From the IMG/VR virus record IMGVR_UViG_3300042445_002023: a stretch of 64,000 nucleotides of DNA; one strand, given 5' to 3'. Source of the stretch: a virus (lineage: Duplodnaviria; Heunggongvirae; Uroviricota; Caudoviricetes). Both the position numbers and the translations under genes were made by a program. The notes below the pieces were generated by a model. That model was given only the letters and a program-made list of their open reading frames with translations. It was not told where the DNA came from and did no database searches. Position 1 is the first letter of the stretch. The number at the start of each line of letters is the position of its first letter. Below are positions 6,070 through 62,850 of this stretch, piece by piece.

Positions 6070-6082
6070 CAATTTTTTTTTT

Positions 6083-6110: not shown

Positions 6111-6122
6111 TAAAGGTAAAAT

Positions 6123-36277: not shown

Positions 36278-36290
36278 ATAAAACAATATT

Positions 36291-38072: not shown

Positions 38073-38091
38073 ACAAAAAGGAAAAAACAAA

Positions 38092-38355
38092 ATGGTAACA
38101 GTTAAGAAATTTTCAGCAGTGTGGTGTGGCCCTTGTAGAGCATTAGCTCCGGTTATTAATGAAATAAAAAATCAATTTTCAAATGTTAAATTTGAAGATT
38201 ACGATGTAGATATCGCATATGATGAGGCAACAAAGTACGGAATTCGTTCAGTACCGACCGTAATCATTGAAAAAGATGGTAAAGAAATAAATCGCTTTAC
38301 TGGAATGTCTTCGAAGATGGCATATATAAACGCAATAAATGAATGTATCCAATAA
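38092..38355 (+). CDS. thioredoxin
   Basis: WCGPC active site; start taken at the ATG at 38092 rather than the track's GTG at 38062. Confidence 0.7.
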   Translation: MVTVKKFSAVWCGPCRALAPVINEIKNQFSNVKFEDYDVDIAYDEATKYGIRSVPTVIIEKDGKEINRFTGMSSKMAYINAINECIQ

Positions 38356-38524
38356 TAGACGAGGGGAAAATCATCCTAAGGCTAAACTAACAAACGAGCA
38401 AGTTATATCAATAAGAGACCTTTTTAAGAAAGGGTTTTCAGTTAATGTTATAGCAAGAAACTTTAAAGTTAGTAAGTGGAATATTTCAGAAATTGTAAAA
38501 CGTCAAACGTGGACACACATTTGA
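38339..38524 (+). CDS. small helix-turn-helix-like protein (61 aa); possible remnant of a homing-endonuclease DNA-binding module
   Basis: The segment NHPKAKLTNEQVISIRDLFKKGFSVNVIARNFKVSKWNISEIVKR resembles the helix-turn-helix modules of free-standing endonucleases; sits in the RNR/thioredoxin neighbourhood. Confidence 0.3.
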   Translation: MNVSNNRRGENHPKAKLTNEQVISIRDLFKKGFSVNVIARNFKVSKWNISEIVKRQTWTHI

Positions 38525-38527
38525 TTT

Positions 38528-38556
38528 GGAAATACGGAATATTTTTCGTATCTTTG
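38528..38556 (+). promoter_or_regulatory. early/middle promoter-like motif: GGAAATACGGAATATTTTTCGTATCTTTG
   Basis: Same motif family; 35 nt upstream of methyltransferase paralog 1. Confidence 0.5.
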
Positions 38557-38590
38557 ATAAAATATAAACTGAATAAAATAATAAAAGGTT

Positions 38591-39823
38591 ATGTATATAG
38601 AGTATTTTGATAAATTTTATGGTATGACACCATATCTTTATATCGGTAAGGAAGAGTGGTCTCACATTAAAAAAACATACCAAAGAGAAGACGTTAAGGA
38701 ATCTCTTGCCAAAGTATGTATGACATATGAATTACCATATGCAGATATTTCTGAAGAGGATGCAAGAAAAGAGTATCTTAAATTAAAAGGAACTCGTTAT
38801 CACGAACTTCTAACCGAAGGTGAGTGGTTTCCTCGTAAGGCATCTGAAACCCGTTATCCATTAGGATTTCAAGGTAAACAACAATATGTAAGAAGGCTGA
38901 ATACTGGTAATGGGGCATCGAATCATTTTCAACAAGCAAATAGATGGAGCGTAGATGGGACAGTATCGCCTGGCCCATTCCGTACTTGGAATAACCCTGA
39001 TTTTATGTTTTCACTAATCGGTGGAATGTATACCCTAAAATTTGATGAGGTTAGTAAAAATACCCTAAGAACTTGTCTATCTTTAAGAAAGTATATTTGT
39101 TCTCAGTTCAAACCAAACGTAGCAAAGGCACTTTATGATTTCGTTCAAGCAAAGAATGTATTAGATATTTCTGCTGGATGGGGTGATAGATTATGTGGAT
39201 TTTTCGCATCAGAATATGGTGAGCATTATGTAGGTATTGACCCGCGTAAAGAAAATCATCCAATATACGAAAAACAAGCCGAATTCTATAAAAAGAATAA
39301 TGGTTTTTTTGAAACTGATAAGAGGGCAACCTTTCATTGTTCTCCCGCAGAGGATATGGATTATAGTGAGTATACCGATTACTTTGATATTGTATTCAGT
39401 TCGCCACCATATTTCAACGTAGAGAGATATTCATATGATGATACTCAAAGTTGGATTCGATATAAAAATATTGATGCATGGAATAAATTATTCTTACATG
39501 CAACGATTGAAAAAGTATGGCCTACTATCCGTAAGGGTGGGTATCTAGCAGTTAATATCGCAGATGTATATGCATCCTCAAAGGGTGATGGCAAAGGTCA
39601 ACAGGAAATCACTAACCCAATGAACGATTTTATTTCCACATTAGAAGGTGCAGAGTATCAAGGATGTTTAGGTATGGAAATGGCTAAGAGGCCAGGTTCA
39701 ATTGGAGCAGGTGCAATGATTGAGGGAGATGAAGACCGATATTCCGAAGAAGAAAAGCAAAAGGCAATTGAAAATGCCGGTAAAACTTTCTGCGAACCGG
39801 TATGGGTATTTAGGAAAATGTAA
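38591..39823 (+). CDS. SPPY-motif methyltransferase-like protein, paralog 1 (putative DNA amino-methyltransferase with an unrecognised N-terminal domain)
   Basis: Motif I-like DISAGWGDRLCGFFAS...HYVGIDP, then motif IV FSSPPYFN about 75 aa later; paralogous to 39828 and 48533. Confidence 0.5.
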   Translation: MYIEYFDKFYGMTPYLYIGKEEWSHIKKTYQREDVKESLAKVCMTYELPYADISEEDARKEYLKLKGTRYHELLTEGEWFPRKASETRYPLGFQGKQQYVRRLNTGNGASNHFQQANRWSVDGTVSPGPFRTWNNPDFMFSLIGGMYTLKFDEVSKNTLRTCLSLRKYICSQFKPNVAKALYDFVQAKNVLDISAGWGDRLCGFFASEYGEHYVGIDPRKENHPIYEKQAEFYKKNNGFFETDKRATFHCSPAEDMDYSEYTDYFDIVFSSPPYFNVERYSYDDTQSWIRYKNIDAWNKLFLHATIEKVWPTIRKGGYLAVNIADVYASSKGDGKGQQEITNPMNDFISTLEGAEYQGCLGMEMAKRPGSIGAGAMIEGDEDRYSEEEKQKAIENAGKTFCEPVWVFRKM

Positions 39824-39827
39824 TTTA

Positions 39828-41048
39828 ATGATAAAAGAATATTTCAAAAAGTTTTATGGAATGACCCCCTATATCAATATTGATAAGGAGGAGTGGAAAC
39901 ATATACTAAATACATTTGAAAAGGAAGAGATAGTAGAAACATTATCAGAAGTATTACATACTTATCCACCACCTATTCCTATTATTACAGAACAAGAAAC
40001 GATTGATGCATATAAAAAGTTAAAGGGTACTTGGTGGCCGGATATTTTAGTGGAGGGAGAATGGTTTCCGCGTAATGAAAGGGAATCTGCATATCCACTT
40101 ACATTTGATAGTAGTAATTATTACTTTAAAAGAACGAATGTTGGTAATAACGCATCCAACCCATTCCATATAGAAAATCGATGGAAGGTAGATTGGTCAA
40201 GAACACCATCAGGTTGGAAGACATGGCAGACAGTTAATGGTATAAAAACCATAGTTCGGGCATTCTTCACATTAGAACAAGTCCTAACTGATGTAAATAA
40301 GGAAACACTAAAGATGGCAACTACATTACGAAAGTATGTGGCATCACAATTCAAACCTGTAATTGCTAAAGCATTTTATGATAGATTCCAAAGTGAGAAT
40401 ATATTAGATTTTTCAGCAGGTTGGGGAGATAGATTATGTGGATTCTTTGCAAGTGAAACGGGTAAACATTATGTTGGTATAGACCCTAATTTAGATAATC
40501 ACCCAAATTATGAAAACCAAATAGAATTTTATCAGAAACACAAAACGTTTTTTGAGAATCCTAAAACTGTGGAACTGATAAAGTTACCGGCAGAAGATGT
40601 GGATTATTCCAAATATGAAAACTTTTTTGATACAATCTTCACTTCACCTCCATACTTCAATACTGAAAAGTATTCCACACATGATACTCAAAGTTATTTA
40701 CGCTATAAAAAGATAGATGATTGGAATACCAATTTCCTACATAAAACAATTAAAAAAATAATCCCTACCTTAAAGAAGGGTGGGTTATTAGCAGTTAATA
40801 TTGCAGATGTATTTTCAGCACCAGATAAGGGGTATGTTGATATTGTAAATGCTATGAATGACTTTATTAAATCAGAGGGATTAGAATATATGGGTTGTAT
40901 TGGAATGGAAATGACAAAAAGGTTTAATTCCGGCGGTGCAGGAAATGCTAAATCTGAATATTTTGCAGAAGAACTCAAAGAAAAAACAGAACTCAATAAA
41001 AATAATGCATTTGGTGAACCCATTTGGATTTGGAAAAAAATAAAATAA
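39828..41048 (+). CDS. SPPY-motif methyltransferase-like protein, paralog 2
   Basis: DFSAGWGDRLCGFFAS...HYVGIDP and FTSPPYFN; start placed at the ATG at 39828, directly after the paralog 1 stop, to match the paralog 1 N-terminus (MIKEYFKKFYGMTPY against MYIEYFDKFYGMTPY). Confidence 0.5.
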   Translation: MIKEYFKKFYGMTPYINIDKEEWKHILNTFEKEEIVETLSEVLHTYPPPIPIITEQETIDAYKKLKGTWWPDILVEGEWFPRNERESAYPLTFDSSNYYFKRTNVGNNASNPFHIENRWKVDWSRTPSGWKTWQTVNGIKTIVRAFFTLEQVLTDVNKETLKMATTLRKYVASQFKPVIAKAFYDRFQSENILDFSAGWGDRLCGFFASETGKHYVGIDPNLDNHPNYENQIEFYQKHKTFFENPKTVELIKLPAEDVDYSKYENFFDTIFTSPPYFNTEKYSTHDTQSYLRYKKIDDWNTNFLHKTIKKIIPTLKKGGLLAVNIADVFSAPDKGYVDIVNAMNDFIKSEGLEYMGCIGMEMTKRFNSGGAGNAKSEYFAEELKEKTELNKNNAFGEPIWIWKKIK

Positions 41049-41054
41049 AATAAT

Positions 41055-41753
41055 ATGACAGTTATAGAAGCAACATCTCCGGGAGATGCATGGGTAAAGG
41101 TATCTAAACACCTTATTGCCAATGGCGTAAAGGTAGGCGATTTAACCGAAGAGTTAAACGTAATGACAGAAATCACCGAATTTAAATCTGATGAATGGTT
41201 CGACCCACATTTTAGAGAAATTATGGGAGATGATAGAATTGATTACGCAAAGACCGTAACCTTCTTAGAACCACAACCAAAGGTATCGGATAACCCATTC
41301 TTTGTAGCCGAAGAGGGATTGGAATACAAATTCATTAAAGACCACTGGCATGATTCATATTGGGGTAGAATGATTGCATGGCAAGGAACATTTAATCAAG
41401 TAGAAAATGTAATTAAAATCCTTAAAACTGGTAAAGCAGTTAAGAGATGTGAATTGATTATCTTTGACCCGAGCAGAGATGCTAGGAATCCATACTCACA
41501 ACCTTGTATGTTAGGGATTGATATTAAACCTCGTGGTGGTAAAATCTACCTAACATCAATCATTCGTTCAAATAGAGTATCCAAATCAGGTTACGCAGAT
41601 TACACTGCATTGGTTGAGATGGGTAAGTTCTTAGCGAGAGAAAGTGGTATGGAGTTAGGGAAAGTTTCAGTTTTAGCTTGTTCTTGTCATATCGGTAAAA
41701 TGAATGATGAAACGAAAAAGACTCATAAGTTATTAGAAGTATTAAATAAATAA
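41055..41753 (+). CDS. thymidylate-synthase-fold enzyme (232 aa); could be a dUMP/dCMP hydroxymethylase or a TS-like pyrimidine-modifying enzyme
   Basis: A candidate nucleophile segment, SQPCMLGIDIKPRGGKIYLTSIIRSNRVS, is similar to the ThyA active site PCH...YQRSxD; shorter than a canonical ThyA. Confidence 0.45.
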   Translation: MTVIEATSPGDAWVKVSKHLIANGVKVGDLTEELNVMTEITEFKSDEWFDPHFREIMGDDRIDYAKTVTFLEPQPKVSDNPFFVAEEGLEYKFIKDHWHDSYWGRMIAWQGTFNQVENVIKILKTGKAVKRCELIIFDPSRDARNPYSQPCMLGIDIKPRGGKIYLTSIIRSNRVSKSGYADYTALVEMGKFLARESGMELGKVSVLACSCHIGKMNDETKKTHKLLEVLNK

Positions 41754-41754
41754 T

Positions 41755-42177
41755 ATGAAAAAAGAACAACAAGAGTTCGTAGCATTTGAACCACAAAAAG
41801 TAAATAGATTTTTAATTGAATTTAATTCCCCATTTGTTATCCCAACATATGCGGTCCATAAAATGAGTGAATTAAAAGTAGTTTGTGTTTATGATGATGG
41901 GTGGGTAAATTGGGGTGATTTAACAATTGAGATGTATGAAACTTCAGAAATTCCAATTGCTTCAATTATTTGCAAGGGATTAGCAGAAAATAAATCTAAA
42001 CAAACTAATACAATTTCGTTTCAATTATTAGAATTAAATGTAGTAGGAGATATTATTCAACGTTGGGAAATCAATGCAAAGATAAAGGATATAGCATTTG
42101 GAAAATATGATTGGTTAAATGATGAGTTGAAAATGATAGAAATGAATTTAAAAGACGTAGAAGCTGATATAAAATAA
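41755..42177 (+). CDS. hypothetical protein (140 aa)
   Basis: Tightly coupled ORF inside the candidate modification cluster. Confidence 0.45.
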   Translation: MKKEQQEFVAFEPQKVNRFLIEFNSPFVIPTYAVHKMSELKVVCVYDDGWVNWGDLTIEMYETSEIPIASIICKGLAENKSKQTNTISFQLLELNVVGDIIQRWEINAKIKDIAFGKYDWLNDELKMIEMNLKDVEADIK

Positions 42178-42182
42178 ATAAT

Positions 42183-43688
42183 ATGTGTGGAATTGTAGCA
42201 ACGATTGGATATAAAAGAGATGATGTGAATGTAATGCTCGAAGCAATTGAGCATCGTGGTAGAGATAATCGTGGTATTAAAGAATTCCAATATAACGATA
42301 AACATATTATCTTAGGACATAACCGATTATCAATCAACGATACTTCACCATTGGGTAATCAACCTATGGAATGGGATGGAGTTGAATTGGTAGTCAATGG
42401 TGAGATTTGGAACTATCCTCAATTGCGTAAAGAATACGAAGGAAGGGGGTATCACTTTAAATCTAATTCAGATTCAGAAATTATTCTATATCTTTACAAG
42501 GAAGGTGAATTAAAGAGATTAGAGGGTATGTTCTCATTCATTATATACGATAATGATAAGTTGATACTATCGAGGGACTGGGTGGGTAAATTGCCCCTTT
42601 ATATTCACAATACAAACAACTATATCATCGCTAGTGAATTGAAATCCATTACAACACAGGTAAAGAGTTCAGATATTAAGTTTGTACCTAAGAATTCATT
42701 GGTAGAAATTGATTTAAATACTGATACGATTGTAGTTCATAAAGATTATTATTTTCAATTCTCAAACGAACCTACTATACCGGCATCACATGAAGAAGTT
42801 GGTGAAACTACATTTAAGTTATTAGAAACTGCAGTAGATAAAAGATTATTATCAGATGTACCAATTGCTACATCACTAAGTGGTGGGATTGATTCTGCAA
42901 TCATTACCTACCTACTATCACAACGTATACCAAACCTAAAAGCATACACAATTGCATTTGATGAAACCTCAAAGGATTTACAAAAGGCAAGAGTATGTGC
43001 GGAGTATTTAGGAGTGGAGTTAGTTGAAGTATTTGTTCCTAAAGATGAAGAAATAATTAAACAAAGATTTTTAGATTCAATTAGAGTAATCGAATATCCA
43101 TCGACCGTTCAAATGGAAGTGGGTATCCTACAATCCTTTATTGCAGAACAAATGGCAAGAGATGGTATTAAGGTAGCATTTAGTGGTGAGGGTTCTGATG
43201 AATCCTATGGTTCGTATGGTACATTCCGTATGTTCAGTAAGAAACCAGATTGGAGTGATGTTCGTAAAAAGTTATTTGAAAAACAATACTATGGTAACCT
43301 ATTAAGAGGTAATACTATCTTTATGAATTATGGAACAATCGAATTAAGATGCCCATTCTTTGATACCGAATTTTTAAACTATACTACTAATTTAACCGAT
43401 GAATACTTATCTAAAGGAGGTCAATGGAAATTACCACTTGCTAATGCATTCAGAGGTAAACTGCCTGATGAGATTTTAGACCAGGAAAAAAGAGCATTTC
43501 AAAAAGGAACAAATTTTAAACAATACATCGAAGAAATCATTTTAAAAGATGAATCTATTAATTTTAAGAAAAGAAAAAATATGATTCATGTCATTGGTGA
43601 TAACTTTGAAAAAATACACGGGTTCTCTCATAGAAAAATGAAAGGAGAATTAACGTCAAACTCAGGAGGAATATATCAATGGATTTAA
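42183..43688 (+). CDS. asparagine-synthetase-like enzyme: class II glutamine amidotransferase fused to a PP-loop ATP pyrophosphatase
   Basis: N-terminal Met-Cys-Gly (MCGIV) nucleophile and PP-loop motif SLSGGIDSA; 501 aa. Confidence 0.65.
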   Translation: MCGIVATIGYKRDDVNVMLEAIEHRGRDNRGIKEFQYNDKHIILGHNRLSINDTSPLGNQPMEWDGVELVVNGEIWNYPQLRKEYEGRGYHFKSNSDSEIILYLYKEGELKRLEGMFSFIIYDNDKLILSRDWVGKLPLYIHNTNNYIIASELKSITTQVKSSDIKFVPKNSLVEIDLNTDTIVVHKDYYFQFSNEPTIPASHEEVGETTFKLLETAVDKRLLSDVPIATSLSGGIDSAIITYLLSQRIPNLKAYTIAFDETSKDLQKARVCAEYLGVELVEVFVPKDEEIIKQRFLDSIRVIEYPSTVQMEVGILQSFIAEQMARDGIKVAFSGEGSDESYGSYGTFRMFSKKPDWSDVRKKLFEKQYYGNLLRGNTIFMNYGTIELRCPFFDTEFLNYTTNLTDEYLSKGGQWKLPLANAFRGKLPDEILDQEKRAFQKGTNFKQYIEEIILKDESINFKKRKNMIHVIGDNFEKIHGFSHRKMKGELTSNSGGIYQWI

Positions 43689-44518
43689 AACTAAAAGGAT
43701 TAACCGAAGATACCCCATTAGAACTTTATCACATTAAGGGTAGAGAAGTATGGGTAAAGAGGGATGACTTGATGGGCGATGGTATGATATTACCGCCGTG
43801 GGGTAAATTAGCAGCATTATTTGAATTGGTTAAAAAATATATTGATAAATCAAAACCACTGGTTCACCTTTCCGTAGATGGTAGTTGGACAGCATGGGCA
43901 TTGAGTGCAATATGTGAGGAATTGGGAATTGAATTTTATGCAGCACACCCTGATTCTAAAAAGATATCACAGGAATATTTGAGAATGATTAAGGAAATGC
44001 ATCCTAAAACAAACCTATATCCAATTAGACCTAATATGATGCAGATTATGTATAATTCGTTAAAGAAAGATGCAAGAGAAAGGGGATGGCAAATGTTACC
44101 TTACGCTTTTGACCACGATTTCTATAAAGATTATCTTGCAGATAGAATTCAACCCCTTGCCCATTTTGATAATTTAGTAGTATCATCTGGTAGTGGTGTA
44201 ACTCTTGCAGGATTAGCAAGAGGATATTATAGAGAGGAACTTAAAGAGTTTTTTCCACAAGTTAAAAAGAAGATTTGGACAACATGTGTATCATCGGTTA
44301 GTTCAATCAATAAAACACTTAAAAAGAGTGGGATTCCAATTCCCCTAAATATACGAAAATCAGAGTATCTATTTGAGAATAGATTAGATGGTTACGAAAC
44401 CCCATTCCCTTGCAACCAATTTTGGGATGTAAAGCAATGGAAGTGGTTAGAAGAAAACATAGACCAAATCGAAGGAACTATTCTATTCTGGAATATTGGT
44501 GGAATTTACAAATTTTAA
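43679..44518 (+). CDS. PLP-dependent fold-type II enzyme of the ACC deaminase / D-cysteine desulfhydrase family
   Basis: Collinear matches to the D-cysteine desulfhydrase family: TPLELYHIKGREVWVKRDDL (family: TPLEYL...REIFIKRDDV), VVSSGSGVTLAGLA, and LFWNIGG; overlaps the upstream stop by 10 nt. Confidence 0.55.
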   Translation: MDLKLKGLTEDTPLELYHIKGREVWVKRDDLMGDGMILPPWGKLAALFELVKKYIDKSKPLVHLSVDGSWTAWALSAICEELGIEFYAAHPDSKKISQEYLRMIKEMHPKTNLYPIRPNMMQIMYNSLKKDARERGWQMLPYAFDHDFYKDYLADRIQPLAHFDNLVVSSGSGVTLAGLARGYYREELKEFFPQVKKKIWTTCVSSVSSINKTLKKSGIPIPLNIRKSEYLFENRLDGYETPFPCNQFWDVKQWKWLEENIDQIEGTILFWNIGGIYKF

Positions 44519-44530
44519 AAAAATAAAATA

Positions 44531-44773
44531 ATGGCAGGTGATATAAAAAAGAAGAGTTCATTTAAACCACATAAGATATCTTTACCAAAAGAAGGTAGTT
44601 TAAAAGCTGAAAAATGGTTCAATCGTAGAGAGGAAGAACTGCGTAAAAAACAAATAAAACAAGAGTTACTTAATCAAGGAATTGATATAAATAAAAAACC
44701 ACCATTTGTAATTAAAGATGGGATACCTCATAAAATAGTTGATGGTAAATTAGTTCCATTAAAAAAACTATAA
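44531..44773 (+). CDS. hypothetical basic protein (80 aa)
   Basis: ORF only. Confidence 0.4.
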   Translation: MAGDIKKKSSFKPHKISLPKEGSLKAEKWFNRREEELRKKQIKQELLNQGIDINKKPPFVIKDGIPHKIVDGKLVPLKKL

Positions 44774-44840
44774 TTAAAACAAAAATGTAAAATTGGGTGT
44801 TAAATCCAATTTATTTTATATTTATAAACAAATAACAAGG

Positions 44841-45206
44841 ATGTCCAATATGATAAAGTTAAAGAATCTAATTACCGAATTCGGCGGAAAACAATTTAAA
44901 GGAGCTGAAGGAATCCCTGCTAATAAATCTTTGGAAAAAATTAGTAAGACTGAAAAGTTAAATATAATCAAAGGTAAAGGTAATATTATTGATTTTATCG
45001 TTCCTGATGAATATAAAGGTAAAAGAAACTTTTGGCAAGTAATATCTACCGGTAGTATTAAAAAATCCTCATCTGGTAAGATTGTTATGTTAATGGGTGG
45101 TGGTCTGATAAATTCTCCATCATTTGATACCATTGATGATTTGATTGATGGTGTGAATTGGAAATCAATGGAAGAGAGAAGAAGATTTAATGAATCAATA
45201 AAATAA
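44841..45206 (+). CDS. hypothetical protein (121 aa)
   Basis: Start taken at the ATG at 44841 after AAGGA; the track began at 44793. Confidence 0.4.
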   Translation: MSNMIKLKNLITEFGGKQFKGAEGIPANKSLEKISKTEKLNIIKGKGNIIDFIVPDEYKGKRNFWQVISTGSIKKSSSGKIVMLMGGGLINSPSFDTIDDLIDGVNWKSMEERRRFNESIK

Positions 45207-45233
45207 TAAAATTACACATAAAAAGTTACAGAT

Positions 45234-47741
45234 TTGTACAAAAACATATATTATCAAAGGGAACGAAATCTCATTCACCTTTGGGATTCTCATTTAGGTT
45301 ACCGAACCTTCCCATACACCAGATACGCATACGAAAGAGCAGAGAGAGGTGAAGCCCGTTCTATTTATGGTGATAAATTAACTAAGATTTATAAATTCAA
45401 AGGGGATGACCCAAATTTATTTGAATCGGATGTACCCGAAACAACACGTGTTTTAGTCGATACTTATACCGATTCCGATATTCCATCAGATACCATCGTA
45501 ACAATGACATTTGATATTGAGGTGGAAATGGAAAGTGGATTACCTGATACCGAAAAAGCTGAAAACGAACTTACCGCTATTGGTCTACAAGATAATATCA
45601 CCAATCAATATTGGGTATTGATTATGGATAAGAAAGGTAAGATGGTGGAACGAAAAACCGATAAGGCAATCATTCTACCATTCAGAGATGAAAGGGATAT
45701 GTGTATGAAGTTCTTAGAACTTTATGAAGGTATTGCACCGGATATTTTAACTGGTTGGAACATTGATAATTTTGATATTCCGTATCTATTCAACCGAATG
45801 AAACGCATCTTAGGTGAATCTCAAGCAAAGAGGTTATCACCTATTGGTCAAGCATTTTATTCTCCATATCGTCAAAGATGGTTCTTTGCAGGAGTAAGTT
45901 GTTTGGATTACCTATCACTCTATAAGAAATTTAACTACAACGAATTACCTAACTATCGATTAGATACCATTGGTACGATTGAATTAGGTAAGGGTAAGAT
46001 TGAATATCAAGGTTCATTGGATGATTTATTTAATGAAGACATTGAAAAGTTCATTGAGTATAACTTAGTCGATGTTGAGATTGTTGTGGAGTTGGATAAG
46101 AAATTACAATTCATTGATTTATGTAGAGGTATCTGCCACGCAGGACACGTTCCCTATGAGGACTTCGTTTATTCATCTAAGTATTTAGAGGGTGCATTGT
46201 TATGTTTCCTTAAACGTAAGGGATTAGTTGCTCCGAATAAACCATCAGACCGTAAGGAAATGATGCAGGCATTGAGAGATAATGAACAAGAAAAGTTTAT
46301 CGGTGCGTATGTAAAAGACCCGATTGTGGGTAAGTATGATTGGGTATATGATTTGGATTTAACATCTCTATATCCATCAATCATCATGACAATCAACATT
46401 TCTCCTGAAACCAAAGTTGCTAAAATTGCAGATTGGGATGTTCAGAAATATATGAAGAGGGAGGTTGATTACTATCAAATGGGTGATAATAAAATCTCAC
46501 GTGATAATTTAGAAAAGTATATTAAAGAGGCAGATTTAACAATATCATCAAATGGTGTGTTATATCGTAAAGATAAAATAGGATGTATTCCTGAAATTTT
46601 AGATATTTGGTTCAATGAAAGGGTGGAGTTTAGAAAGTTGGAAAAGAAGTACGGCCAGGAGGGTAATAAAGAAAAATATGCCTTTTACGGCAAAAGACAG
46701 TTGGTTCAAAAAATTCTACTTAACTCTCTTTATGGTGTGCTTGGTCTTCCTGCCTTTCGGTTTTATGATGTTGATAATGCGGAGGCAGTTACGACTACGG
46801 GTCAGACGGTTATTAAGAACTCTGCGAATATGGGAAACATCAAATACAATAAAGAGTTAGGTACTACTGATGTGGATTCTAACATTTACATTGATACGGA
46901 TTCAGTATTTTTTTCTGCAGTACCACTTTTAGATTTCCGTCATCCAAATTGGAAGGAAATGCCAGATAGTGAAGTTGCAGTATTGGTAGATGGAATCGCA
47001 GGTGAAATGCAAGATTATCTAAATAAGTTTTATGATATTCTTTCAGATAAGTTTTTCAATGTTCAAAATCACCGATTAGAAATTAAAAAGGAATACGTTG
47101 CTAGGGCAGGTATTTGGATTGCAAAAAAGAGATACGCACAATGGATTATTTCAAACAATGGTGTTGCCGTAGATAGATTGGATGTAAAGGGATTGGATGT
47201 TAGAAGGTCATCATTCCCTAAGGCGTTTCAAGATTGTATGGGGACGGTTCTAATAGATATCTTAAAAGGTAAAACTGAAGAGGAATTAACAGCATTTGTT
47301 CTTGCGTTTAAAAAGAGTATGGTAAGTAGACCGATACATGAAATTGCAAAGAACTCAGCAGTTAAAAACCTTTCAAAATATTCACCAAAGAAAAGACAAT
47401 TATTCCATATGGAAAAAGGTGCACCTGCTCACGTTAAAGCAGCAATTCTATATAATGATTGTTTAACCCACTTTAAAGCCCCATTCAAATATTCACCAAT
47501 GAAAGATGGTGATAAAATCAAATGGGTCTATCTTAAAAATAATCCATTAGGAATTGATGGATTGGGATTCACAGGATATGATGACCCACAAGAAATAGTT
47601 GATTTCATTACAACTTATACCGACCATAATCGAATCTTCGAAGCGGAATTAAAAGGTAAGTTACAAGATTTCTATAACGCCTTAGGTTGGGGTGAAGTAA
47701 TGAGTGAACAAAAAAATGCAGAAAAATTCTTTTCTTTTTAA
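45234..47741 (+). CDS. family B DNA polymerase
   Basis: Exo I (FDIEV), motif A (DLTSLYPSII) and motif C (YIDTDSVFF). Confidence 0.8.
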   Translation: MYKNIYYQRERNLIHLWDSHLGYRTFPYTRYAYERAERGEARSIYGDKLTKIYKFKGDDPNLFESDVPETTRVLVDTYTDSDIPSDTIVTMTFDIEVEMESGLPDTEKAENELTAIGLQDNITNQYWVLIMDKKGKMVERKTDKAIILPFRDERDMCMKFLELYEGIAPDILTGWNIDNFDIPYLFNRMKRILGESQAKRLSPIGQAFYSPYRQRWFFAGVSCLDYLSLYKKFNYNELPNYRLDTIGTIELGKGKIEYQGSLDDLFNEDIEKFIEYNLVDVEIVVELDKKLQFIDLCRGICHAGHVPYEDFVYSSKYLEGALLCFLKRKGLVAPNKPSDRKEMMQALRDNEQEKFIGAYVKDPIVGKYDWVYDLDLTSLYPSIIMTINISPETKVAKIADWDVQKYMKREVDYYQMGDNKISRDNLEKYIKEADLTISSNGVLYRKDKIGCIPEILDIWFNERVEFRKLEKKYGQEGNKEKYAFYGKRQLVQKILLNSLYGVLGLPAFRFYDVDNAEAVTTTGQTVIKNSANMGNIKYNKELGTTDVDSNIYIDTDSVFFSAVPLLDFRHPNWKEMPDSEVAVLVDGIAGEMQDYLNKFYDILSDKFFNVQNHRLEIKKEYVARAGIWIAKKRYAQWIISNNGVAVDRLDVKGLDVRRSSFPKAFQDCMGTVLIDILKGKTEEELTAFVLAFKKSMVSRPIHEIAKNSAVKNLSKYSPKKRQLFHMEKGAPAHVKAAILYNDCLTHFKAPFKYSPMKDGDKIKWVYLKNNPLGIDGLGFTGYDDPQEIVDFITTYTDHNRIFEAELKGKLQDFYNALGWGEVMSEQKNAEKFFSF

Positions 47742-47815
47742 AATAAATTTGGATAATTCAAAAATTATTCGTATCTTTACACTTACAATAAATTAAAACA
47801 ATAAAAAAAAACAAC

Positions 47816-48529
47816 ATGGAAAAAGGTAAATTAGGTCGTTTCGTACAAAAGTACAATCTTGCAGGTTTAGTAGAATCTGTAAAGTGGGAAACAAAAGACA
47901 ACTCATTAACAACTGCATTCATTTCTGATGACAAATCAGTATTGGGTAAAGTAACAATGACAGATTTTGGTTATAGTGATACAACATTTGGTGTATATGA
48001 TACATCTAAGTTGACTAAAATGTTATCAGTATTAGGAGAATCAATTGATTTTGAAATTTCTGATGTAGATGGTAAAGCGGTATCATTAAAGTTTAAAGAT
48101 GGTTCAACTTCAATCAATTATATGTTGGCTGACCTTTCGGTTATCCCAAATGTACCTGATTTGAAACAATTACCAACTTTCAACATTAAAATTAAGTTAG
48201 ACGAAAACTTTATTACAAAGTTCATCCGTGCTAAATCGGCGTTGACAGATGAGAACAATTTCACATTTGTTGCAAAAGATGGTAAGTGTCAAATTATCTT
48301 AGGTCATTCAAACATTAACACTAATAGAATTTCTATTGATGTTGATTGTGAGTGTGAAGGTAGTATTAACCCAATCTCATTCTCAGCAACTTACTTAAAG
48401 GAAATCTTAGTTGCAAACAAAGAAGCTAAAGATGCTATCTTAGAAATTTCATCACAAGGATTATCTCACATTCATTTTGAAGTAGATGCCTATACATCCG
48501 ATTACTATTTAGTGGAAATCGCTAACTAA
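47816..48529 (+). CDS. sliding clamp (gp45-like, putative)
   Basis: 237 aa ORF between the polymerase and clamp-loader genes, preceded by the early motif; no strong motif, assigned from size and context. Confidence 0.35.
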   Translation: MEKGKLGRFVQKYNLAGLVESVKWETKDNSLTTAFISDDKSVLGKVTMTDFGYSDTTFGVYDTSKLTKMLSVLGESIDFEISDVDGKAVSLKFKDGSTSINYMLADLSVIPNVPDLKQLPTFNIKIKLDENFITKFIRAKSALTDENNFTFVAKDGKCQIILGHSNINTNRISIDVDCECEGSINPISFSATYLKEILVANKEAKDAILEISSQGLSHIHFEVDAYTSDYYLVEIAN

Positions 48530-48532
48530 GAT

Positions 48533-50167
48533 ATGAGTAAACACTATTACGAAAGGTCTAAATTTTCTGAATTCCAATCCAATACAACTTATCATCGGTT
48601 ATTAGAAATGACTGATGATGAGTTTATTAGTTGGGCAAAGTTACTACGCATAGAAGTAACTAAACAATGGGATACCGATGGTGTTCCTCCTGTTATCGGA
48701 AAAGATAAGAATGATATAATCGATTCATTCAAAAAGTTAAAAACAAATGATTGTGATTTCCTTCAAAAAGATTTGACGGGAGATGATAACTCATTGGGTA
48801 TTTTACAAAACTTCAATAAAGATGCATCAGCCGTAAATCAATTCTTTCCAACTATGTTGAAAACCAAAATATCAATCGGTAAATCAGCAGAAGGTGGATT
48901 ATCTATTTATGACCATTTCTCAGACCCGAAATTAGAAGATACCTTCGTTCATATAATGAAGAGGGCGGTTAAGAAAGATTCTATGTATTCGTGGTCACGT
49001 TCTATTGTGAATAAGAAAGATGAGAATGAATTTTGGGATGGTGAAACTGGAATTGAATTTATACAAAAAGTACATGAAGGTAAAGTGTTCGTTGGTAAGT
49101 ACGAAAACATAGGTATTGTTCTTGCGAAAGTAAAGGAGGATACCTTAGATAATTATGGTACTATCAATGAACAATATATTGGATTTGGTAATCTATACCT
49201 AACTGCTGAACAAGTACAAGAATGTAAGGATAAGGGATGGTTATCACATACTCAATTATCTAATATTAAAACGATTGAACCATCTACCACTTTAAAAGAT
49301 GGGACGGTTAAAAAGTTTTTCTATCTGATTCGTTGGTATGATAAGACAATTGGTATCTTTCCAAAGATATTACAAGTGTTTCGTTTAAGTTGTGGTCAAC
49401 CTGCAGTGAATTTCCCTGCACTAACTGCTAAGTGGTTATACGAACATTACACTTCACATATTGAACAATCAGACCCCCTACACATTTATGATTCATCAAG
49501 TGGATGGGGTGGCAGAATATTAGGTGCAATGAGTTCTCGTAAGAAAACCCATTACATTGGAACTGACCCGAACCCTGATAACTTTATACCGGAATTAGGT
49601 ATTTCACGTTATGAGTATGTGGCTGATTTCTATAACAAAAATTGTGTAGATGATTACTCAGAAACATTTGGTAAGTTCTTTGAGGTTCAAAAACAATCAA
49701 ACACTTATGAGTTATTTCAAGATGGCTCGGAGTTGATTCAACATAATCCTAAGTTTCAAAAGTATGCAGGTAAATTGGATTTAGCATTCACATCACCCCC
49801 ATATTTTAATAGAGAACAATATTCACAAGATGAGAATCAATCATTCAAAGCATATGGTGAATATGAGGATTGGAGACAAAACTTCTTACGTCCTACTCTA
49901 ACTACCATTTATGATTATCTTAAAAATGATAGATACATTCTATGGAACATAGCCGATATTAAAATTGGTAAGGATACCTATTATGCATTGGAACAAGATT
50001 CTATTGATATTCTAACCGGATTAGGTTGTGAGTATAAAGGTAGATTGAAGATGTTAATGACCCGAATGGTAGGATTAGACCCATCTAAAACCGGTATTAA
50101 AAACGCAGTTAAACACGATGGTAAAGCGTATAAGTTTGAACCCATTTTTGTATTTTACAAACCATAA
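48533..50167 (+). CDS. SPPY-motif methyltransferase-like protein, paralog 3, with an extra N-terminal extension of about 300 aa
   Basis: SSSGWGGRILGAM...HYIGTDP and AFTSPPYFN; C-terminal block YILWNIADI aligns with LAVNIADV in paralogs 1 and 2. Confidence 0.5.
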   Translation: MSKHYYERSKFSEFQSNTTYHRLLEMTDDEFISWAKLLRIEVTKQWDTDGVPPVIGKDKNDIIDSFKKLKTNDCDFLQKDLTGDDNSLGILQNFNKDASAVNQFFPTMLKTKISIGKSAEGGLSIYDHFSDPKLEDTFVHIMKRAVKKDSMYSWSRSIVNKKDENEFWDGETGIEFIQKVHEGKVFVGKYENIGIVLAKVKEDTLDNYGTINEQYIGFGNLYLTAEQVQECKDKGWLSHTQLSNIKTIEPSTTLKDGTVKKFFYLIRWYDKTIGIFPKILQVFRLSCGQPAVNFPALTAKWLYEHYTSHIEQSDPLHIYDSSSGWGGRILGAMSSRKKTHYIGTDPNPDNFIPELGISRYEYVADFYNKNCVDDYSETFGKFFEVQKQSNTYELFQDGSELIQHNPKFQKYAGKLDLAFTSPPYFNREQYSQDENQSFKAYGEYEDWRQNFLRPTLTTIYDYLKNDRYILWNIADIKIGKDTYYALEQDSIDILTGLGCEYKGRLKMLMTRMVGLDPSKTGIKNAVKHDGKAYKFEPIFVFYKP

Positions 50168-50169
50168 TT

Positions 50170-51522
50170 ATGATTAATATAGTATCAAGAGAACCTCAAT
50201 TATTTTCCTTATTCGGTAAATCTAAATTTAAACAATTAGAACTAACACCGGAGTATAAAGTACTCAATCTTACGCATGAAGGTGAGGAATTTCAGATTAA
50301 GTTATTTAGTGATTTCGATGAAAATAATATTGTGTGGATGACACGCGATGATAGAGGTCAGGAAATTACAAATCATAATTTCTTTGCTACTAATCAAGAT
50401 TCCATTTTTATTAACCCACCTGAAAATGCAACTTTCATTTTAGATAGATGGCAATTTGTAGGGGTATGGGTTAAACTATTTAGAGTGTTTGGTATTGGGT
50501 TTGTAAAACAACTTGAAAAAGTATATAAGGAACGTAATTGTAGAATAGCGTTTGGATTATCATATTTTGAACCTTGTGATTATGAAGCAGACCACTATGT
50601 GGGATGTATTAATGATTACGATTTTGATTATATCAAAATGGCTGATTATCCATTATTTGAAGGATTGAAAAATACTAAGGTAAATACATTCAATTCACTT
50701 TGGAATTACATTTATGATATTCTTGCATTTGAGGTATCACCAAATAACTGGCAACAAATCCTAAATGGTGAAGAAACGTTTTACGATTGGTTACATAGAT
50801 TGGTAGAACCAATTAAAGATAGGGAAAAAGTATTTGGAATGTTGGGTGGTAAACCACGTTATCATAGATTATATTTTATTAATAACATTATAGAAAATGG
50901 GTTGATTGATAAGGGATATGTAACTATGAATAAGTTCTTTTTCAAAGAATATTCAGAAATGGTAAGAACTAAAAATCCAAATACTGATGGAACTAATTTA
51001 ATCAAATCCGAAGTATACAAGTATTGGAATAGTGATTTTTATAAACCAATATCACACTACGATAAGATTTACGACCCATTAGGAGAGCATAAACGATTTG
51101 AATATTCAACTGAAAATATTGTCAATAAAGATTACAACAAAAGTTATATTGAAGTGGTGGGTGAAACTCATATACTATTTAATAAATTATTTGATTTTTG
51201 GTCTGAAAAAACATATCATGGATTATTCTTTGAAAAATTATATATTTCAGTAGGTTCAAATAAATTTTATAGAGAATTTGAGAAATTGGGAGGCCATACC
51301 TTTATAAAAGAATTGGGAATCAATCCTTTATTTTTAGAAACTGAAGACCCGATTAAACAAATGGATTATGTAATTGAAGCATTAGGGAATATATCACTGG
51401 AAGATGCTAAAAGAATTTATTTAGAAAATTTACCTAAAATTAAACATAATAAGAAATTAATTTTAGATTGGATTTATAATGAAATGAATTATTTTAGAGA
51501 GTTTATCCTTATTAAGAAATAA
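50170..51522 (+). CDS. hypothetical protein (450 aa)
   Basis: Starts 3 nt after the paralog 3 stop; no motif. Confidence 0.45.
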   Translation: MINIVSREPQLFSLFGKSKFKQLELTPEYKVLNLTHEGEEFQIKLFSDFDENNIVWMTRDDRGQEITNHNFFATNQDSIFINPPENATFILDRWQFVGVWVKLFRVFGIGFVKQLEKVYKERNCRIAFGLSYFEPCDYEADHYVGCINDYDFDYIKMADYPLFEGLKNTKVNTFNSLWNYIYDILAFEVSPNNWQQILNGEETFYDWLHRLVEPIKDREKVFGMLGGKPRYHRLYFINNIIENGLIDKGYVTMNKFFFKEYSEMVRTKNPNTDGTNLIKSEVYKYWNSDFYKPISHYDKIYDPLGEHKRFEYSTENIVNKDYNKSYIEVVGETHILFNKLFDFWSEKTYHGLFFEKLYISVGSNKFYREFEKLGGHTFIKELGINPLFLETEDPIKQMDYVIEALGNISLEDAKRIYLENLPKIKHNKKLILDWIYNEMNYFREFILIKK

Positions 51523-51543
51523 AACAAATAATATTTATACATA

Positions 51544-52131
51544 ATGACATCGAAAGAATACGTTATATGGCTTAAAGGTTTTGTAGAAGCCTGCCACGAA
51601 TACGCACCAACTCCAAAACAATGGGATGCGTTAAAAGATAAATTGGTAGAGGTTAAGGATGAAGAACCAATAGGATTTCCGTTTGGAGTTCCTAATACTG
51701 CACCAATACAAACATTACCATTTATCCAACCATATAACCCATATAACCCATATCAAATAAATTGTGGTAGTGGTTCATCTGGAACAATAACAACAACACC
51801 TGGTCAAAGTTCTATTACATACGCAACACCACAATTTGTAACATCAACTCCATCAGCAACTGCATATGGGTATCCAAGTGGGAGTACAATGAGTTATACT
51901 AATTCAACATGGAAACCGGAACACGGCCCAAATTCTCCAACTATACAAAATATAAACAAATCATTAGGCGAATCATTAGAGGAATTAGAAAATGATTTCT
52001 TTGGTGCAATTGATGATGGTGGTTGGACACCTGAATTGGAGCAACAATTTTGGTCTGAACAACCTCCTGAACCATTTGCAACACCTGAGGAATTAGCAAA
52101 ATATAATACGGATACAACACAAAATAAATAA
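51544..52131 (+). CDS. hypothetical protein (195 aa) with an acidic C-terminus; possible clamp-loader small subunit
   Basis: Lies directly upstream of the clamp loader; low-complexity PYNPYNPYQ segment; assignment is speculative. Confidence 0.3.
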   Translation: MTSKEYVIWLKGFVEACHEYAPTPKQWDALKDKLVEVKDEEPIGFPFGVPNTAPIQTLPFIQPYNPYNPYQINCGSGSSGTITTTPGQSSITYATPQFVTSTPSATAYGYPSGSTMSYTNSTWKPEHGPNSPTIQNINKSLGESLEELENDFFGAIDDGGWTPELEQQFWSEQPPEPFATPEELAKYNTDTTQNK

Positions 52132-52132
52132 T

Positions 52133-57274: not shown

Positions 57275-57275
57275 T

Positions 57276-57701: not shown

Positions 57702-57711
57702 AAAATAAAAT

Positions 57712-58998: not shown

Positions 58999-58999
58999 A

Positions 59000-61238: not shown

Positions 61239-61242
61239 AAAT

Positions 61243-61833: not shown

Positions 61834-61836
61834 TAT

Positions 61837-62832: not shown

Positions 62833-62850
62833 TAAATAAAAAACCCAATT

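Follow-up and report, generated by a model that had tools for sequence, protein, structure and literature searches.

Here, we describe genes from an uncultured T4-like aquatic phage that on balance probably form a conserved DNA-hypermodification module with a tailored cytosine as its predicted outcome. Four families come together in the window, the whole stretch of 64,000 nucleotides that was analysed: SPPY amino-(methyl)transferase-like proteins (A, B and K), a cytosine-type thymidylate synthase (TS) homolog (C), an AsnB/CmoY-type amidotransferase (E), and a PLP enzyme of the M6 gp52 type (F). Cytosine is most likely the base that would be decorated in the phage DNA, with a decoration so far undescribed, and our literature search did not find a description of an SPPY/TS/AsnB/PLP module in any paper. 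A preliminary description had proposed a candidate hypermodification cluster matching no named pathway; this proposal held up in each computational test that was run, and the SPPY, TS, AsnB and PLP genes stay linked from one lineage to the next.

The six genes are all present with the coordinates, strand and motifs first given for them (Table 1), and the ribonucleotide reductase (RNR), thioredoxin and PolB genes flank or interleave with them as originally described. In every lineage of the clade the module is set between thioredoxin/RNR and PolB/clamp/clamp loader. E and F overlap by 10 nt; the genome is densely packed on a single strand, however, so that adjacency alone is weak evidence.

Table 1. 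Genes of the predicted module and of its surroundings in the window.
Feature	Position	Strand	Description
Ribonucleotide reductase	35264-38072		neighbour of the module
Thioredoxin	38062-38355		neighbour of the module
A	38591-39823	+	410 aa; motif FSSPPYFN; SPPY class-I SAM-dependent amino-methyltransferase-like
B	39828-41048	+	406 aa; motif FTSPPYFN; SPPY paralog of A
C	41055-41753	+	232 aa; divergent, predicted cytosine-type thymidylate-synthase-fold enzyme
D	41755-42177		within the A to K span, outside the module
E	42183-43688	+	501 aa; glutamine-hydrolysing AsnB/CmoY-type amidotransferase
F	43679-44518	+	279 aa; PLP-dependent, M6 gp52 / ViI gp226 family
Two small ORFs	44531-45206		within the A to K span, outside the module
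PolB	45234-47741		within the A to K span, outside the module
Sliding clamp	47816-48529		within the A to K span, outside the module
K	48533-50167	+	544 aa; motif FTSPPYFN; third SPPY paralog, longer N-terminal region

The grouping of these genes exceeds chance. We counted genes no more than 5 kb from the TS-like gene in 44 IMG/VR loci that extend for 4 kb or more on both sides and are phylogenetically non-independent. SPPY genes were present at 42 of these loci, PLP genes at 41 and AsnB-like genes at 37, with all three at 33; where TS identity is below 60% (n = 19), the numbers for SPPY, PLP and AsnB-like genes are 19, 16 and 15. The four families co-localise, in the order K-TS-Asn-PLP among others, even in contigs whose flanks have no counterpart in the window. 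In Mel-JY01, the nearest isolate (PolB 51% identical), the replication block is the same but the module is absent, which marks the module as an accessory island. This island varies in its further tailoring enzymes (GNAT, radical SAM, D-2-hydroxyacid dehydrogenase, PdxH, P-loop+GNAT, GmrSD-like), the GmrSD-like type IV nuclease homolog being an insertion seen in close relatives. Combinatorial variation also marks known hypermodification clusters. Neither the window nor the flanks fetched for loci with the module contain a recognisable dCTPase, 5-hmdU-type kinase, aGPT-Pplase, C5-MTase or CmoA, and a dNMP kinase was seen only in a distant relative (L007), where an enzyme of T4-gp1 type directly follows PolB.

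C belongs to a new subfamily of thymidylate synthases, predicted to be of cytosine type. It scores 19.5 bits against the Pfam thymidylate synthase model, under the threshold of 24.3, and is recovered by PHROG 5131 (1.5e-9) and TIGR03283 (7e-18). By residue criteria taken from PMC13326640, Cys151 aligns with the catalytic Cys146 and Arg171 with Arg166, while Asp182, Ser148 and Arg174 stand at the Asn177, Leu143 and Asp169 positions, respectively. Asp in place of Asn177 changes the substrate of TS-family enzymes from dUMP to dCMP (PMC13326640; PMC8670742), and Asp is found here in 13 of the 13 full-length subfamily members aligned, making cytosine a more likely target than the 5-hmdU-derived thymidine that had been offered as an example. 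At the cofactor position, Asp169, the subfamily has Arg or Ala, in contrast to the Asp of folate enzymes and the Asn of flavin-dependent hydroxylases (PMC13326640). The subfamily is small, with 14 representative clusters at ≤1e-30 among 1.84 billion proteins. The residue alignment and profile matches set C apart from an ordinary ThyA, an identity that the preliminary description had left open. C shares its TS fold, catalytic Cys, N177D cytosine signature and T4-like myovirus origin with the dCMP hydroxymethylase T4 gp42 and the 5hodCMP synthases RB69 gp48 and DLP3 gp80 (Lee et al, 2026, PMC13326640), but it has Ser rather than Asp or Glu at position 143 and is without a demonstrably linked adjacent dNMP kinase or DNA glycosyltransferase. 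The best PDB match of C is the CMP 5-hydroxymethylase MilA (5b6d/5jnh; E 1.3e-5 with the family profile), with low identity confined to core residues 111-217. MilA likewise carries Asp at the Asn177 position, but it differs from C in having retained Asp169, in its length of 325-342 aa and in being part of an antibiotic pathway of Streptomyces. That an antibiotic-biosynthesis CMP enzyme is the best match weighs against the DNA-modification reading.

E starts with MCGIV, contains SLSGGIDS, and keeps Cys2, the glutaminase residues and the PP-loop. Its AsnB-like nature is borne out by Pfam (Asn_synthase 1.8e-42, GATase_7 2e-30) and can be sharpened, as its closest match is a glutamine-type ligase of a CmoX/CmoA cluster. 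This closest relative from a cultured phage, gp124 of Streptomyces phage TurkishDelight (32% identity over 90% of E), lies in the uncharacterised gp123-125 cluster with the order ParB-C5 MTase-gp124-CmoA-like, and has in common with E two substrate-site changes relative to E. coli AsnB, Arg325 to Glu and Asp384 to Asn. Synechococcus phage S-B43, in its CmoA-CmoX-CmoY 5-carboxymethylcytosine system, likewise has an AsnB homolog beside a cytosine-modifying enzyme (Yang et al, 2025, PMC12783734). AsnB homologs (CmoY) join an amine to 5-carboxymethylcytosine on DNA, and glutamine-type ligases are the second-largest ligase cluster in CmoX-encoding contigs (PMC12783734). The module resembles CmoX-type systems in having a methyltransferase-fold partner and cytosine as the probable target base, but the window has neither a C5-MTase (SPPC motif) nor CmoA; E is instead accompanied by SPPY amino-MTase-like proteins, a TS homolog and, in addition, a PLP enzyme, and CmoY, unlike E, has no glutaminase domain and uses glycine. 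Close cellular orthologs, which had been considered for an AsnB/PLP pair from amino-acid metabolism, were not found for E in a scan of GTDB species representatives. The score of E above the NCBIfam asparagine-synthase cut-off (TIGR01536; 282.6 against 267.1), on the other hand, is a point against the DNA-modification reading.

F had been assigned to the ACC-deaminase family, which is correct in that the ACC-deaminase homolog 1j0a is its only meaningful match in the PDB, with Lys43 on the PLP lysine, but incomplete, as F is also a full-length homolog of M6 gp52 (tblastn, 24.9% identity, E 4e-16). Lys43 aligns with Lys36 of gp52, the SGSG loop is kept, and the C-terminal motif PFPCN.F.D.K.W.W...G.I.FWN.G is common to F and the gp52 family. 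F matches PHROG 7093 (1e-23) and, weakly, Pfam PALP (1.4e-4); tblastn against phage records returned 64, each covering at least 80% of F, and in one relative a true PdxH adjoins the F homolog. M6 gp52 and ViI gp226 act on amino-acid-base conjugates in DNA, which they decarboxylate (PMC8989533), and their family has so far been reported from thymidine pathways only. With M6/ViI thymidine hypermodification (Lee et al, 2018, 2021; PMC5889632, PMC8989533) the module would share a C5 step by a TS-family enzyme before replication and tailoring on DNA thereafter, and it shares the homology of F to both PLP decarboxylases, a location next to replication genes and combinatorial variation. It differs in its cytosine-type TS homolog lacking Asp169, in the absence from the window of a 5-hmdU DNA kinase, an aGPT-Pplase (amino-acid:DNA transferase) and a radical-SAM isomerase, and in having SPPY methyltransferase-like paralogs and a glutamine-type AsnB instead.

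The three SPPY proteins are paralogs, as had been claimed, A sharing 52% identity with B and 25% with K; for B, the ATG at 39828 aligns with the N-terminus of A, and a TTG start at 39720 would give a longer ORF that reaches into A. The class-I SAM fold, canonical motif I and SPPY motif IV are those of N4-cytosine/N6-adenine amino-methyltransferases, and an SPPY motif IV is of the type seen in N4-cytosine enzymes. The Pfam N6_N4_Mtase model is defined by beta-class enzymes, from which A, B and K differ in having motif I ahead of motif IV, and its threshold of 26.7 bits is reached by B alone (27.0; K 26.0). Further differences from these enzymes are a unique N-terminal domain of 165-300 aa (about 165 aa and uncharacterised in A), conservation exceeding that of PolB, and the presence of 3-5 paralogs per genome in tight linkage to the TS, AsnB and PLP genes. 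The AF2 model of K is moderate (pLDDT 69), and in another lineage, where the order is K-TS-Asn-PLP, the K ortholog (73% identical) extends into the start of the TS-like gene; in close relatives, a 390-aa P-loop+GNAT protein takes the position of B. The preliminary description is to be corrected for A, which belongs to the replication module across the clade as well and which many relatives carry without C, E and F (Pol-Clamp-A-ClampLoader); the SPPY genes may thus be ordinary methyltransferases at an insertion hot-spot.

Could these genes lie side by side without a common product? Under such an arrangement, which we regard as unlikely, the SPPY proteins would be ordinary anti-restriction N4-cytosine/N6-adenine methyltransferases of the replication module, and C, E and F unrelated auxiliary metabolic genes with free metabolites as substrates: C a methylase or hydroxymethylase of dCMP/dUMP, E an asparagine synthetase and F a PLP enzyme of the ACC-deaminase/D-cysteine-desulfhydrase type. 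The occurrence of A by itself, the canonical SPPY motif and methyltransferase core, the TIGR01536 score and intact glutaminase site of E, the lone PDB match of F and the dense one-strand genome all agree with it. However, the four families remain neighbours even in lineages with unrelated flanks, F has the gp52-family C-terminal motif, E has lost AsnB Arg325 and Asp384 through changes common to the ligase of a CmoX-type cluster and has no close ortholog in the GTDB scan, and C combines the cytosine-type Asp with the loss of the cofactor Asp169.

The nature of the substrate can also be questioned. MilA and BcmA work in nucleoside-antibiotic pathways, and the module might target RNA (tRNA or rRNA) or free nucleotides, giving for instance a modified cytidine-derived small molecule, rather than virion DNA. 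MilA as the best solved relative of C and the lack of a dNMP kinase and dCTPase in the window are in line with this. C-containing 4-bp palindromes are, moreover, strongly avoided in the lineage (GATC 0 observed against 246 expected; observed/expected 0.42 for CATG, 0.35 for CTAG and 0.14 for GCGC), which argues against a blanket bulky replacement protecting every cytosine and suggests that the DNA is not broadly shielded. We nonetheless consider an RNA or free-nucleotide target quite improbable, given the embedding among replication genes in every clade lineage, the DNA substrates of the characterised homologs of E and F, the dNMP kinase just past PolB in the distant relative and the GmrSD-like homolog in the island of close relatives. 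Thymidine hypermodification of the M6/ViI type, derived from 5-hmdU, would suit the family membership of F, and uncharacterised amidotransferases near such clusters have been remarked on by Lee et al. It is highly improbable in view of the Asp at the Asn177 position in all C-subfamily members aligned and the cytosine-N4 type of the SPPY motif; Pfam and tblastn searches, moreover, found no aGPT-Pplase, radical-SAM isomerase or 5-hmdU kinase (5-HMUDK), the last in agreement with the preliminary description.

How might the favoured cytosine pathway proceed? C would act on the cytosine nucleotide pool, with Cys151 attacking C6 and a C5 substituent being put on dCMP, which the phage polymerase would then incorporate; the Cys and the cytosine-type Asp are present, and from them we infer substrate and product. 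On DNA, the SPPY enzymes may, as their motif suggests, attach a group derived from SAM to an amino nitrogen, which could be N4 of cytosine or belong to a side-chain amine or amide. By analogy with CmoY and M6 gp52, E could use ATP and glutamine-derived ammonia to turn a carboxylate on the base into a carboxamide, and F could strip the alpha-carboxyl from a base-borne alpha-amino-acid moiety or process this moiety otherwise. E and F would vie for one carboxyl, which counts against the proposed mechanism, and so does the lack of the partner enzymes listed above, which would account for the pre-replicative route and the carboxyl or amino-acid source. The end product of the proposed pathway would be a tailored cytosine that hinders host nucleases.

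The four enzyme families of the candidate cytosine hypermodification module, SPPY methyltransferase-like, TS-like, AsnB-like and PLP, are co-inherited across phages of distinct backbones. Loci were fetched with the PLP enzyme F, the SPPY protein A and the TS subfamily of the TS-fold enzyme C as seeds, and were mapped by BLASTP against the window proteins. The TS subfamily is almost never alone: among 44 TS loci with at least 4 kb on both sides, an SPPY gene lies within 5 kb in 42, a PLP gene in 41, an AsnB-like gene in 37 and all three in 33, counts that come from loci which are not independent samples and which involve at least five distinct backbones. The pattern holds in the 19 of these loci whose TS identity is below 60%, where SPPY, PLP and AsnB-like genes accompany it in 19, 16 and 15 cases, respectively. 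In another three of the 44 loci the AsnB slot contains a 303-306-aa ORF, which in the one scanned (L294) encodes a PP-loop-only Asn_synthase. The order K-TS-Asn-PLP, with overlapping genes, recurs in contigs that have no flanks in common with the window (K 73%, TS 47%, Asn 66% and PLP 44% identical to the window proteins), other loci show ClampLoader-A-TS-Asn-PLP or A-TS-PLP-Asn, and in jumbo contigs of 149-376 kb the set TS-PP-loop-PLP has three to five SPPY paralogs around it.

By its Pfam content the window belongs to a T4-like myovirus, with every sizeable ORF on the + strand and a G+C content of 28-36%. The tail genes are followed by gp32, UvsX/RecA, a 5'-3' exonuclease and a DnaB-like helicase, and after an ordinary N6_N4 methyltransferase come both RNR subunits, thioredoxin, PolB, clamp, clamp loader, a GroES-like protein and a PD-(D/E)XK nuclease (all Pfam). 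An ORF check recovered all six ORFs of the preliminary description with the coordinates and motifs that it reported (see the table). No DNA-level relatives of the region were found by megablast among 50,697 phage records; the nearest isolate, Microcystis phage Mel-JY01 (PolB 51% identical), keeps the thioredoxin-PolB-clamp-loader backbone and lacks all module genes. Near-identical IMG/VR and JGI contigs do exist, for example 3300033996_001274 (63 kb), and relatives reach 287-289 kb, as in the contigs IMGVR_UViG_3300012347_000377 and 3300033076_000838. Genes in the region are tightly packed, with gaps of 1-6 nt and a 10-nt overlap of E and F. Spacing alone proves little, since the whole genome is equally packed and a promoter/terminator scan of 37800-52200 returned fewer sites than shuffled sequence, so that operon boundaries could not be called.

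Features of the window: the module and its surroundings
Feature	Coordinates	Strand	Remarks
Tail sheath, tube, baseplate	3039-6878	+	Pfam
gp19-like tail tube protein	5529-6017
PhyH-family 2OG dioxygenase	15889-16665		Accessory gene
Band_7/SPFH	19947-20858		Accessory gene
Non-specific DNA/RNA endonuclease	22628-23293		Accessory gene; Endonuclease_NS, 4e-36
DUF1599 protein	26828-27298		'Nucleotide modification associated domain 1', 4.7e-6
Ordinary N6_N4 methyltransferase	33767-34873	+	Pfam
Helix-turn-helix-like ORF	38339-38524		61 aa; KGFSVNVIARNFKVSKWNISEIV
A, SPPY methyltransferase-like	38591-39823	+
B, SPPY methyltransferase-like	39828-41048	+
C, TS-fold enzyme	41055-41753	+
D	41755-42177		140 aa; TS-like/AsnB-like gap
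E, AsnB-like	42183-43688	+
F, PLP enzyme	43679-44518	+
Two small ORFs	44531-45206		80 and 137 aa; F-PolB gap
K, SPPY methyltransferase-like	48533-50167	+
ORF past K	50170-51522		450 aa
GroES-like	53672-53980		Accessory gene
Glycan/sugar-nucleotide gene block	55880-63495		Directly past clamp loader and PD-(D/E)XK nuclease
dUTPase	57276-57701		Within the glycan block, between the two GT4 genes

Several other genes of the window recur in relatives. The helix-turn-helix-like ORF lies between thioredoxin and the island in many of them, at 53-97% identity, and in many relatives the DUF1599 gene has an ortholog flanked by clamp-loader subunit A and the PD-(D/E)XK nuclease; a Cpn60 gene sits between PolB and clamp in relatives. 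The glycan block comprises a GT4 pair, for which 'GT4 in conflict systems' is the best Pfam match (1.5e-6), the dUTPase, a GT2, Glyco_trans_1_2, Methyltransf_24, an NAD epimerase/dehydratase and a second GT2, and Mel-JY01 carries a similar block. The 450-aa ORF past K has no family match and occurs in only a few close relatives. The 137-aa ORF in the F-PolB gap likewise has no family match, and the fetched loci contain no homolog of either ORF in that gap; conservation with the module is seen for none of these three ORFs. ORF D was rejected as a pathway member, as it is weakly paralogous to the gp19-like tail tube protein (23% identity, E 5e-5) and is absent from all module copies except those of three near-identical relatives.

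How does the module relate to its genomic slot? On its own, A is a clade-wide replication-module gene in the typical order Pol-Clamp-A(-B)-ClampLoader, and in such loci no TS, AsnB or PLP gene lies within 10 kb of a solitary A. Immediately upstream of A or K lies a hot-spot that alternative gene sets occupy; by Pfam these include TS-AsnB-PLP (the window), AsnB'-D-2-hydroxyacid dehydrogenase-PLP, TS-Fpg/Nei-like-PdxH-PLP, AsnB'-GNAT, PLP-CxxCxxCC protein and PLP-dUTPase-S-AdoMet-lyase-like. The last of these is seen in four loci (L120, L126, L128, L129) as thioredoxin-PLP (gp52-like)-dUTPase-215-aa S-AdoMet-lyase-family protein-SPPY A (lyase, for example, at L128 8724-9371; Pfam 3e-13), an order that brings a SAM-cleaving enzyme next to a SAM-dependent one. 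A protein with GmrSD_N and HNH, a homolog of type IV modification-dependent nucleases, is encoded directly past the PLP gene in close relatives, in L016 (7293-8783) and also in L071, L088, L274 and L137. In the close relatives L002-L005 and L016, B is replaced by a 390-aa protein combining a P-loop NTPase with GNAT; compared with the M6 5-hmdU kinase, this protein has only Walker A in common with it, an uninformative likeness.

The active site of C is that of a cytosine-type TS in which the co-substrate position is altered. C is a short TS-fold protein, as the preliminary description had proposed and as profile and structure-database sequence matches bear out, and its Pfam TS score of 19.5 bits is below the gathering threshold of 24.3. 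It was analysed by HMMER alignments to MilA, the 9iqu/9iqc chains and E. faecalis TS, and by MAFFT, with E. coli ThyA numbering and the residue criteria of Lee et al. 2026 (PMC13326640). The catalytic nucleophile Cys146 and the phosphate-binding Arg166 correspond to Cys151 and Arg171 of C, and neither residue varies in the alignments of close homologs and of the subfamily. At position 177, where Asn selects dUMP and Asp dCMP, C has Asp182, and Asp is found in 13/13 full-length subfamily members aligned (C and 12 others), the cytosine type. Position 143, Leu in methylases and Asp/Glu in hydroxymethylases, is Ser148 in C and varies in the subfamily (G, S, R, K, L). Position 169, Asp in folate enzymes and Asn in 5hodCMP synthases, is Arg174 in C; across the 13 full-length members it is Arg in nine and Ala in four, within the motif FRS[QNMC][RA].SK[SA]GY[AG]D[YFVM], and Asp169, a folate contact in TS, is mostly retained in more distant TS-like proteins. 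The 9iqu/9iqc chains, which we infer to be 5hodCMP synthase, carry Asn here. The D169N hallmark of the flavin-dependent 5hodCMP synthases (PMC13326640) is absent from the subfamily of C, which has Arg or Ala and not Asn. HMMER, run exhaustively over 1.84 billion representatives, gave 689 TS-like matches, only 14 of them at or below 1e-30. Given the invariant Cys, Arg171 and Asp182 together with Arg/Ala at the Asp169 position, C defines a small, distinct cytosine-type subfamily, with a co-substrate site unlike those of folate- and flavin-dependent enzymes. Radical-SAM enzymes accompany some members of the subfamily, as fusions or as neighbours: the metagenomic protein P0247 (676 aa) is a fusion with a radical-SAM domain (CPRKCSYC), and in L273 a separate 447-aa radical-SAM gene (4966-6309) stands between the AsnB-like and TS-like genes, in the order AsnB-radical SAM-TS.

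F and E belong to families whose characterised members work in DNA, on amino-acid or carboxyl groups carried by a base. F, put down in the preliminary description as an ACC-deaminase-family enzyme, is indeed a fold-type-II PLP protein. By tblastn it has homologs in 64 phage records, and in all of them 80% or more of F is covered; most records are from M6/YuA-type Pseudomonas phages, with Bordetella and a few other phages besides. The M6 gene matched by F is gp52, annotated 'threonine dehydratase' (96% coverage, 24.9% identity, E 4e-16), and F also matches PHROG 7093 at 1e-23. The two proteins align end to end: Lys43 of F falls on M6 Lys36 and on the PLP lysine of the ACC-deaminase homolog 1j0a (the GNK lysine), the glycine loop SSGSGVTLAGL of F aligns on AAGSGGTLAGL, and both have the C-terminal signature PFPCN.F.D.K.W.W...G.I.FWN.G. 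Lys36 is the PLP-binding residue proposed for gp52, and Lee et al., who purified M6 gp52 and ViI gp226 and saw PLP spectra, found that these enzymes decarboxylate C-alpha-glycinyl-thymine and O-seryl-thymine in DNA (PMC8989533). Full-length homology, PLP lysine and glycine loop thus place F, as judged from its sequence, in the gp52/gp226 family. In the distant relative L006 the F homolog is directly preceded by a PNPOx-like gene, which was considered as a base oxidase and rejected because it encodes a genuine PdxH (218.9 bits, cut-off 180); the simpler reading, PLP cofactor supply for F, is plausible.

E has the MCGIV nucleophile, the intact glutaminase site (equivalents of R49, N74-G75-E76 and D98), the SGGIDS PP-loop and SGEGSDE, and is thus the AsnB-like amidotransferase that had been described. 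It passes TIGR01536 (282.6 against a cut-off of 267.1) and falls short of NF006949, AsnB proper (252 against 499). Alignment to E. coli AsnB (1ct9) shows conserved ATP and PP-loop residues, whereas the T-T-I-R of Thr322, Thr323 and Arg325 becomes V-Q-M-E and Asp384 becomes Asn; these four AsnB residues belong to the aspartate/beta-aspartyl-AMP site. The same changes are found in 41/41 other phage AsnB-like sequences aligned and in gp124 of Streptomyces phage TurkishDelight, the best cultured-phage homolog of E (32% identity, 90% coverage, E 7e-53), in which, as in E, Q-x-E replaces T-I-R and Asn replaces Asp384. Gp124 is encoded in the array ParB-ParB-C5 DNA methyltransferase (TIGR00675, 1e-48)-gp124-CmoA-like (TIGR00740, 2.6e-25), which has the architecture of the system of Yang et al. 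In that system carboxy-SAM is made by CmoA, and cytosine in DNA receives a carboxymethyl at C5 from CmoX; CmoY, the AsnB homolog, joins an amine to the carboxylate of the resulting 5-carboxymethylcytosine, still on DNA. Another large cluster of ligases contains the glutaminase domain, with ammonia as the predicted substrate (PMC12783734). From the shared substrate-site signature, E appears to be nearer to this glutamine-type ligase cluster than to metabolic AsnB. Close cellular orthologs, which the preliminary description had named as evidence for amino-acid metabolism, were not found for E: a pattern scan of 185,579 GTDB species genomes, which detects close relatives only, gave a single match, at 32% identity.

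The three SPPY proteins are paralogs, as had been recognised earlier; identity to A is 52% for B and 25% for K. In all three, a SAM motif I (GWGDR or GWGGR) precedes an exact SPPY, which is also exact in every paralog from related loci. Against the N6_N4_Mtase Pfam cut-off of 26.7, B just passes at 27.0, and K and A score 26.0 and 17.1. The class-I fold was confirmed. The AF2 model is confident for A (pLDDT 85.8) and only moderate for K (pLDDT 69). In BFVD, A has full-length structural relatives in pithoviruses, a poxvirus and Satyrvirus (TM 0.64-0.73), named N4-cytosine or type I methyltransferases in UniProt. The active-site motif of A, B and K is that of amino-methyltransferases of the cytosine-N4 type. 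A has 2856 homologs and is more conserved across the clade than PolB, at 81% versus 59% identity in L034 and 66% versus 54% in L018. Full-length A-like proteins are encoded by salmon gill poxvirus and pithoviruses, and the Satyrvirus protein A0A3G5AD75 (699 aa, named 'glutathione synthase'), which matches the whole A model (TMq 0.66), may join an ATP-grasp amide ligase to an A-like SPPY protein in one chain.

In the mechanism that we propose, C would alter C5 of dCMP before replication, the SPPY enzymes would add a SAM-derived group to a nitrogen, E would amidate a carboxylate on the base, and F would decarboxylate, or otherwise process, a base-borne alpha-amino-acid moiety. For the installation of the carboxyl or amino-acid group the window has no kinase, aGPT-Pplase, CmoX or CmoA, and E and F would have to share a substrate with, normally, one carboxyl only. 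Queries with CmoA-like, C5-MTase, aGPT-Pplase, M6 rSAM, 5-HMUDK and DNMK proteins gave no tblastn match in the window, where no dNMP kinase or dCTPase was found either; Pfam and tblastn detected no 5-hmdU DNA kinase or aGPT-Pplase beside F in the window or the module-bearing loci, in line with the missing kinase of the preliminary description, and no CmoX-type C5-MTase (SPPC) or CmoA was found near E in the window or related loci. The DNMK of L007, used as an IMG/VR seed, had matches of at most 45% identity in other contigs and none in the clade of the window. A possible but doubtful reading is that the module makes a new cytosine derivative without kinase plus aGPT-Pplase or CmoA plus CmoX. 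The SPPY proteins would then not be simple methyltransferases; they would move the 3-amino-3-carboxypropyl (acp) group of SAM, or the carboxymethyl of carboxy-SAM, to a base nitrogen, and the TS-like subfamily would set up C5 with a non-folate co-substrate. Such an alpha-amino-acid handle would account for the presence, in one phage or another, of an AsnB-type, GNAT, gp52-type PLP or S-AdoMet-lyase-like gene directly upstream of A, and we speculate that the 3-amino-3-carboxypropyl group is the substrate for amidotransferase, GNAT and PLP decarboxylase alternatives.

Site avoidance bears on the extent of such a modification. GATC is absent from the 64-kb window, where a Markov model expects 246 sites; CATG, CTAG, GTAC and GCGC have observed/expected ratios of 0.14-0.52, and CCGG and GGCC of about 1.0. 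The avoidance of GATC and other palindromes is clade-wide (L001, most related loci and Mel-JY01), whether the module is present or not, and is not seen in jumbo-phage copies of the module. Clade-wide avoidance suggests that these phages still experience restriction at cytosine-containing sites, which argues against a bulky shield on every cytosine and favours a partial, sequence-specific or differently purposed modification.

Hypermodifications of phage DNA determine how restriction, CRISPR and type IV defence turn out, and they are a source of enzymes for epigenetic sequencing and DNA labelling. As a kind of system they are already known, and pyrimidines are modified by three routes: formation of 5-hydroxymethyl or 5-hydroxy pyrimidines followed by glycosylation, transfer by kinase plus aGPT-Pplase, and carboxy-SAM via a C5-methyltransferase. 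Unlike these routes, the module has no known attachment enzyme, and it unites a gp52-type PLP enzyme, a CmoY-type amidotransferase, a new TS subfamily and multiple SPPY paralogs. We found no paper describing the module, which agrees with the earlier impression that it matches no named pathway, and none describing the combination of TS, amidotransferase, PLP enzyme and cytosine; searches with the PDB codes 9IQU/9IQC/9IR2, DUF1599 and Mel-JY01 likewise found no description of it. The only related remark, in Lee et al. 2021, concerns uncharacterised amidotransferases near thymidine clusters (PMC8989533). What seems not to have been described before is this combination of enzymes, together with the TS subfamily and the family of SPPY paralogs.

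In conclusion, the module is widespread in metagenomes, among them lake samples and Tara Oceans sequences, and occurs in contigs of up to 376 kb; it is compact, K-TS-Asn-PLP spanning about 4.6 kb, which makes heterologous expression a direct test. If it modifies DNA, it would represent a fourth route of pyrimidine hypermodification in phages, probably leading to a new base.
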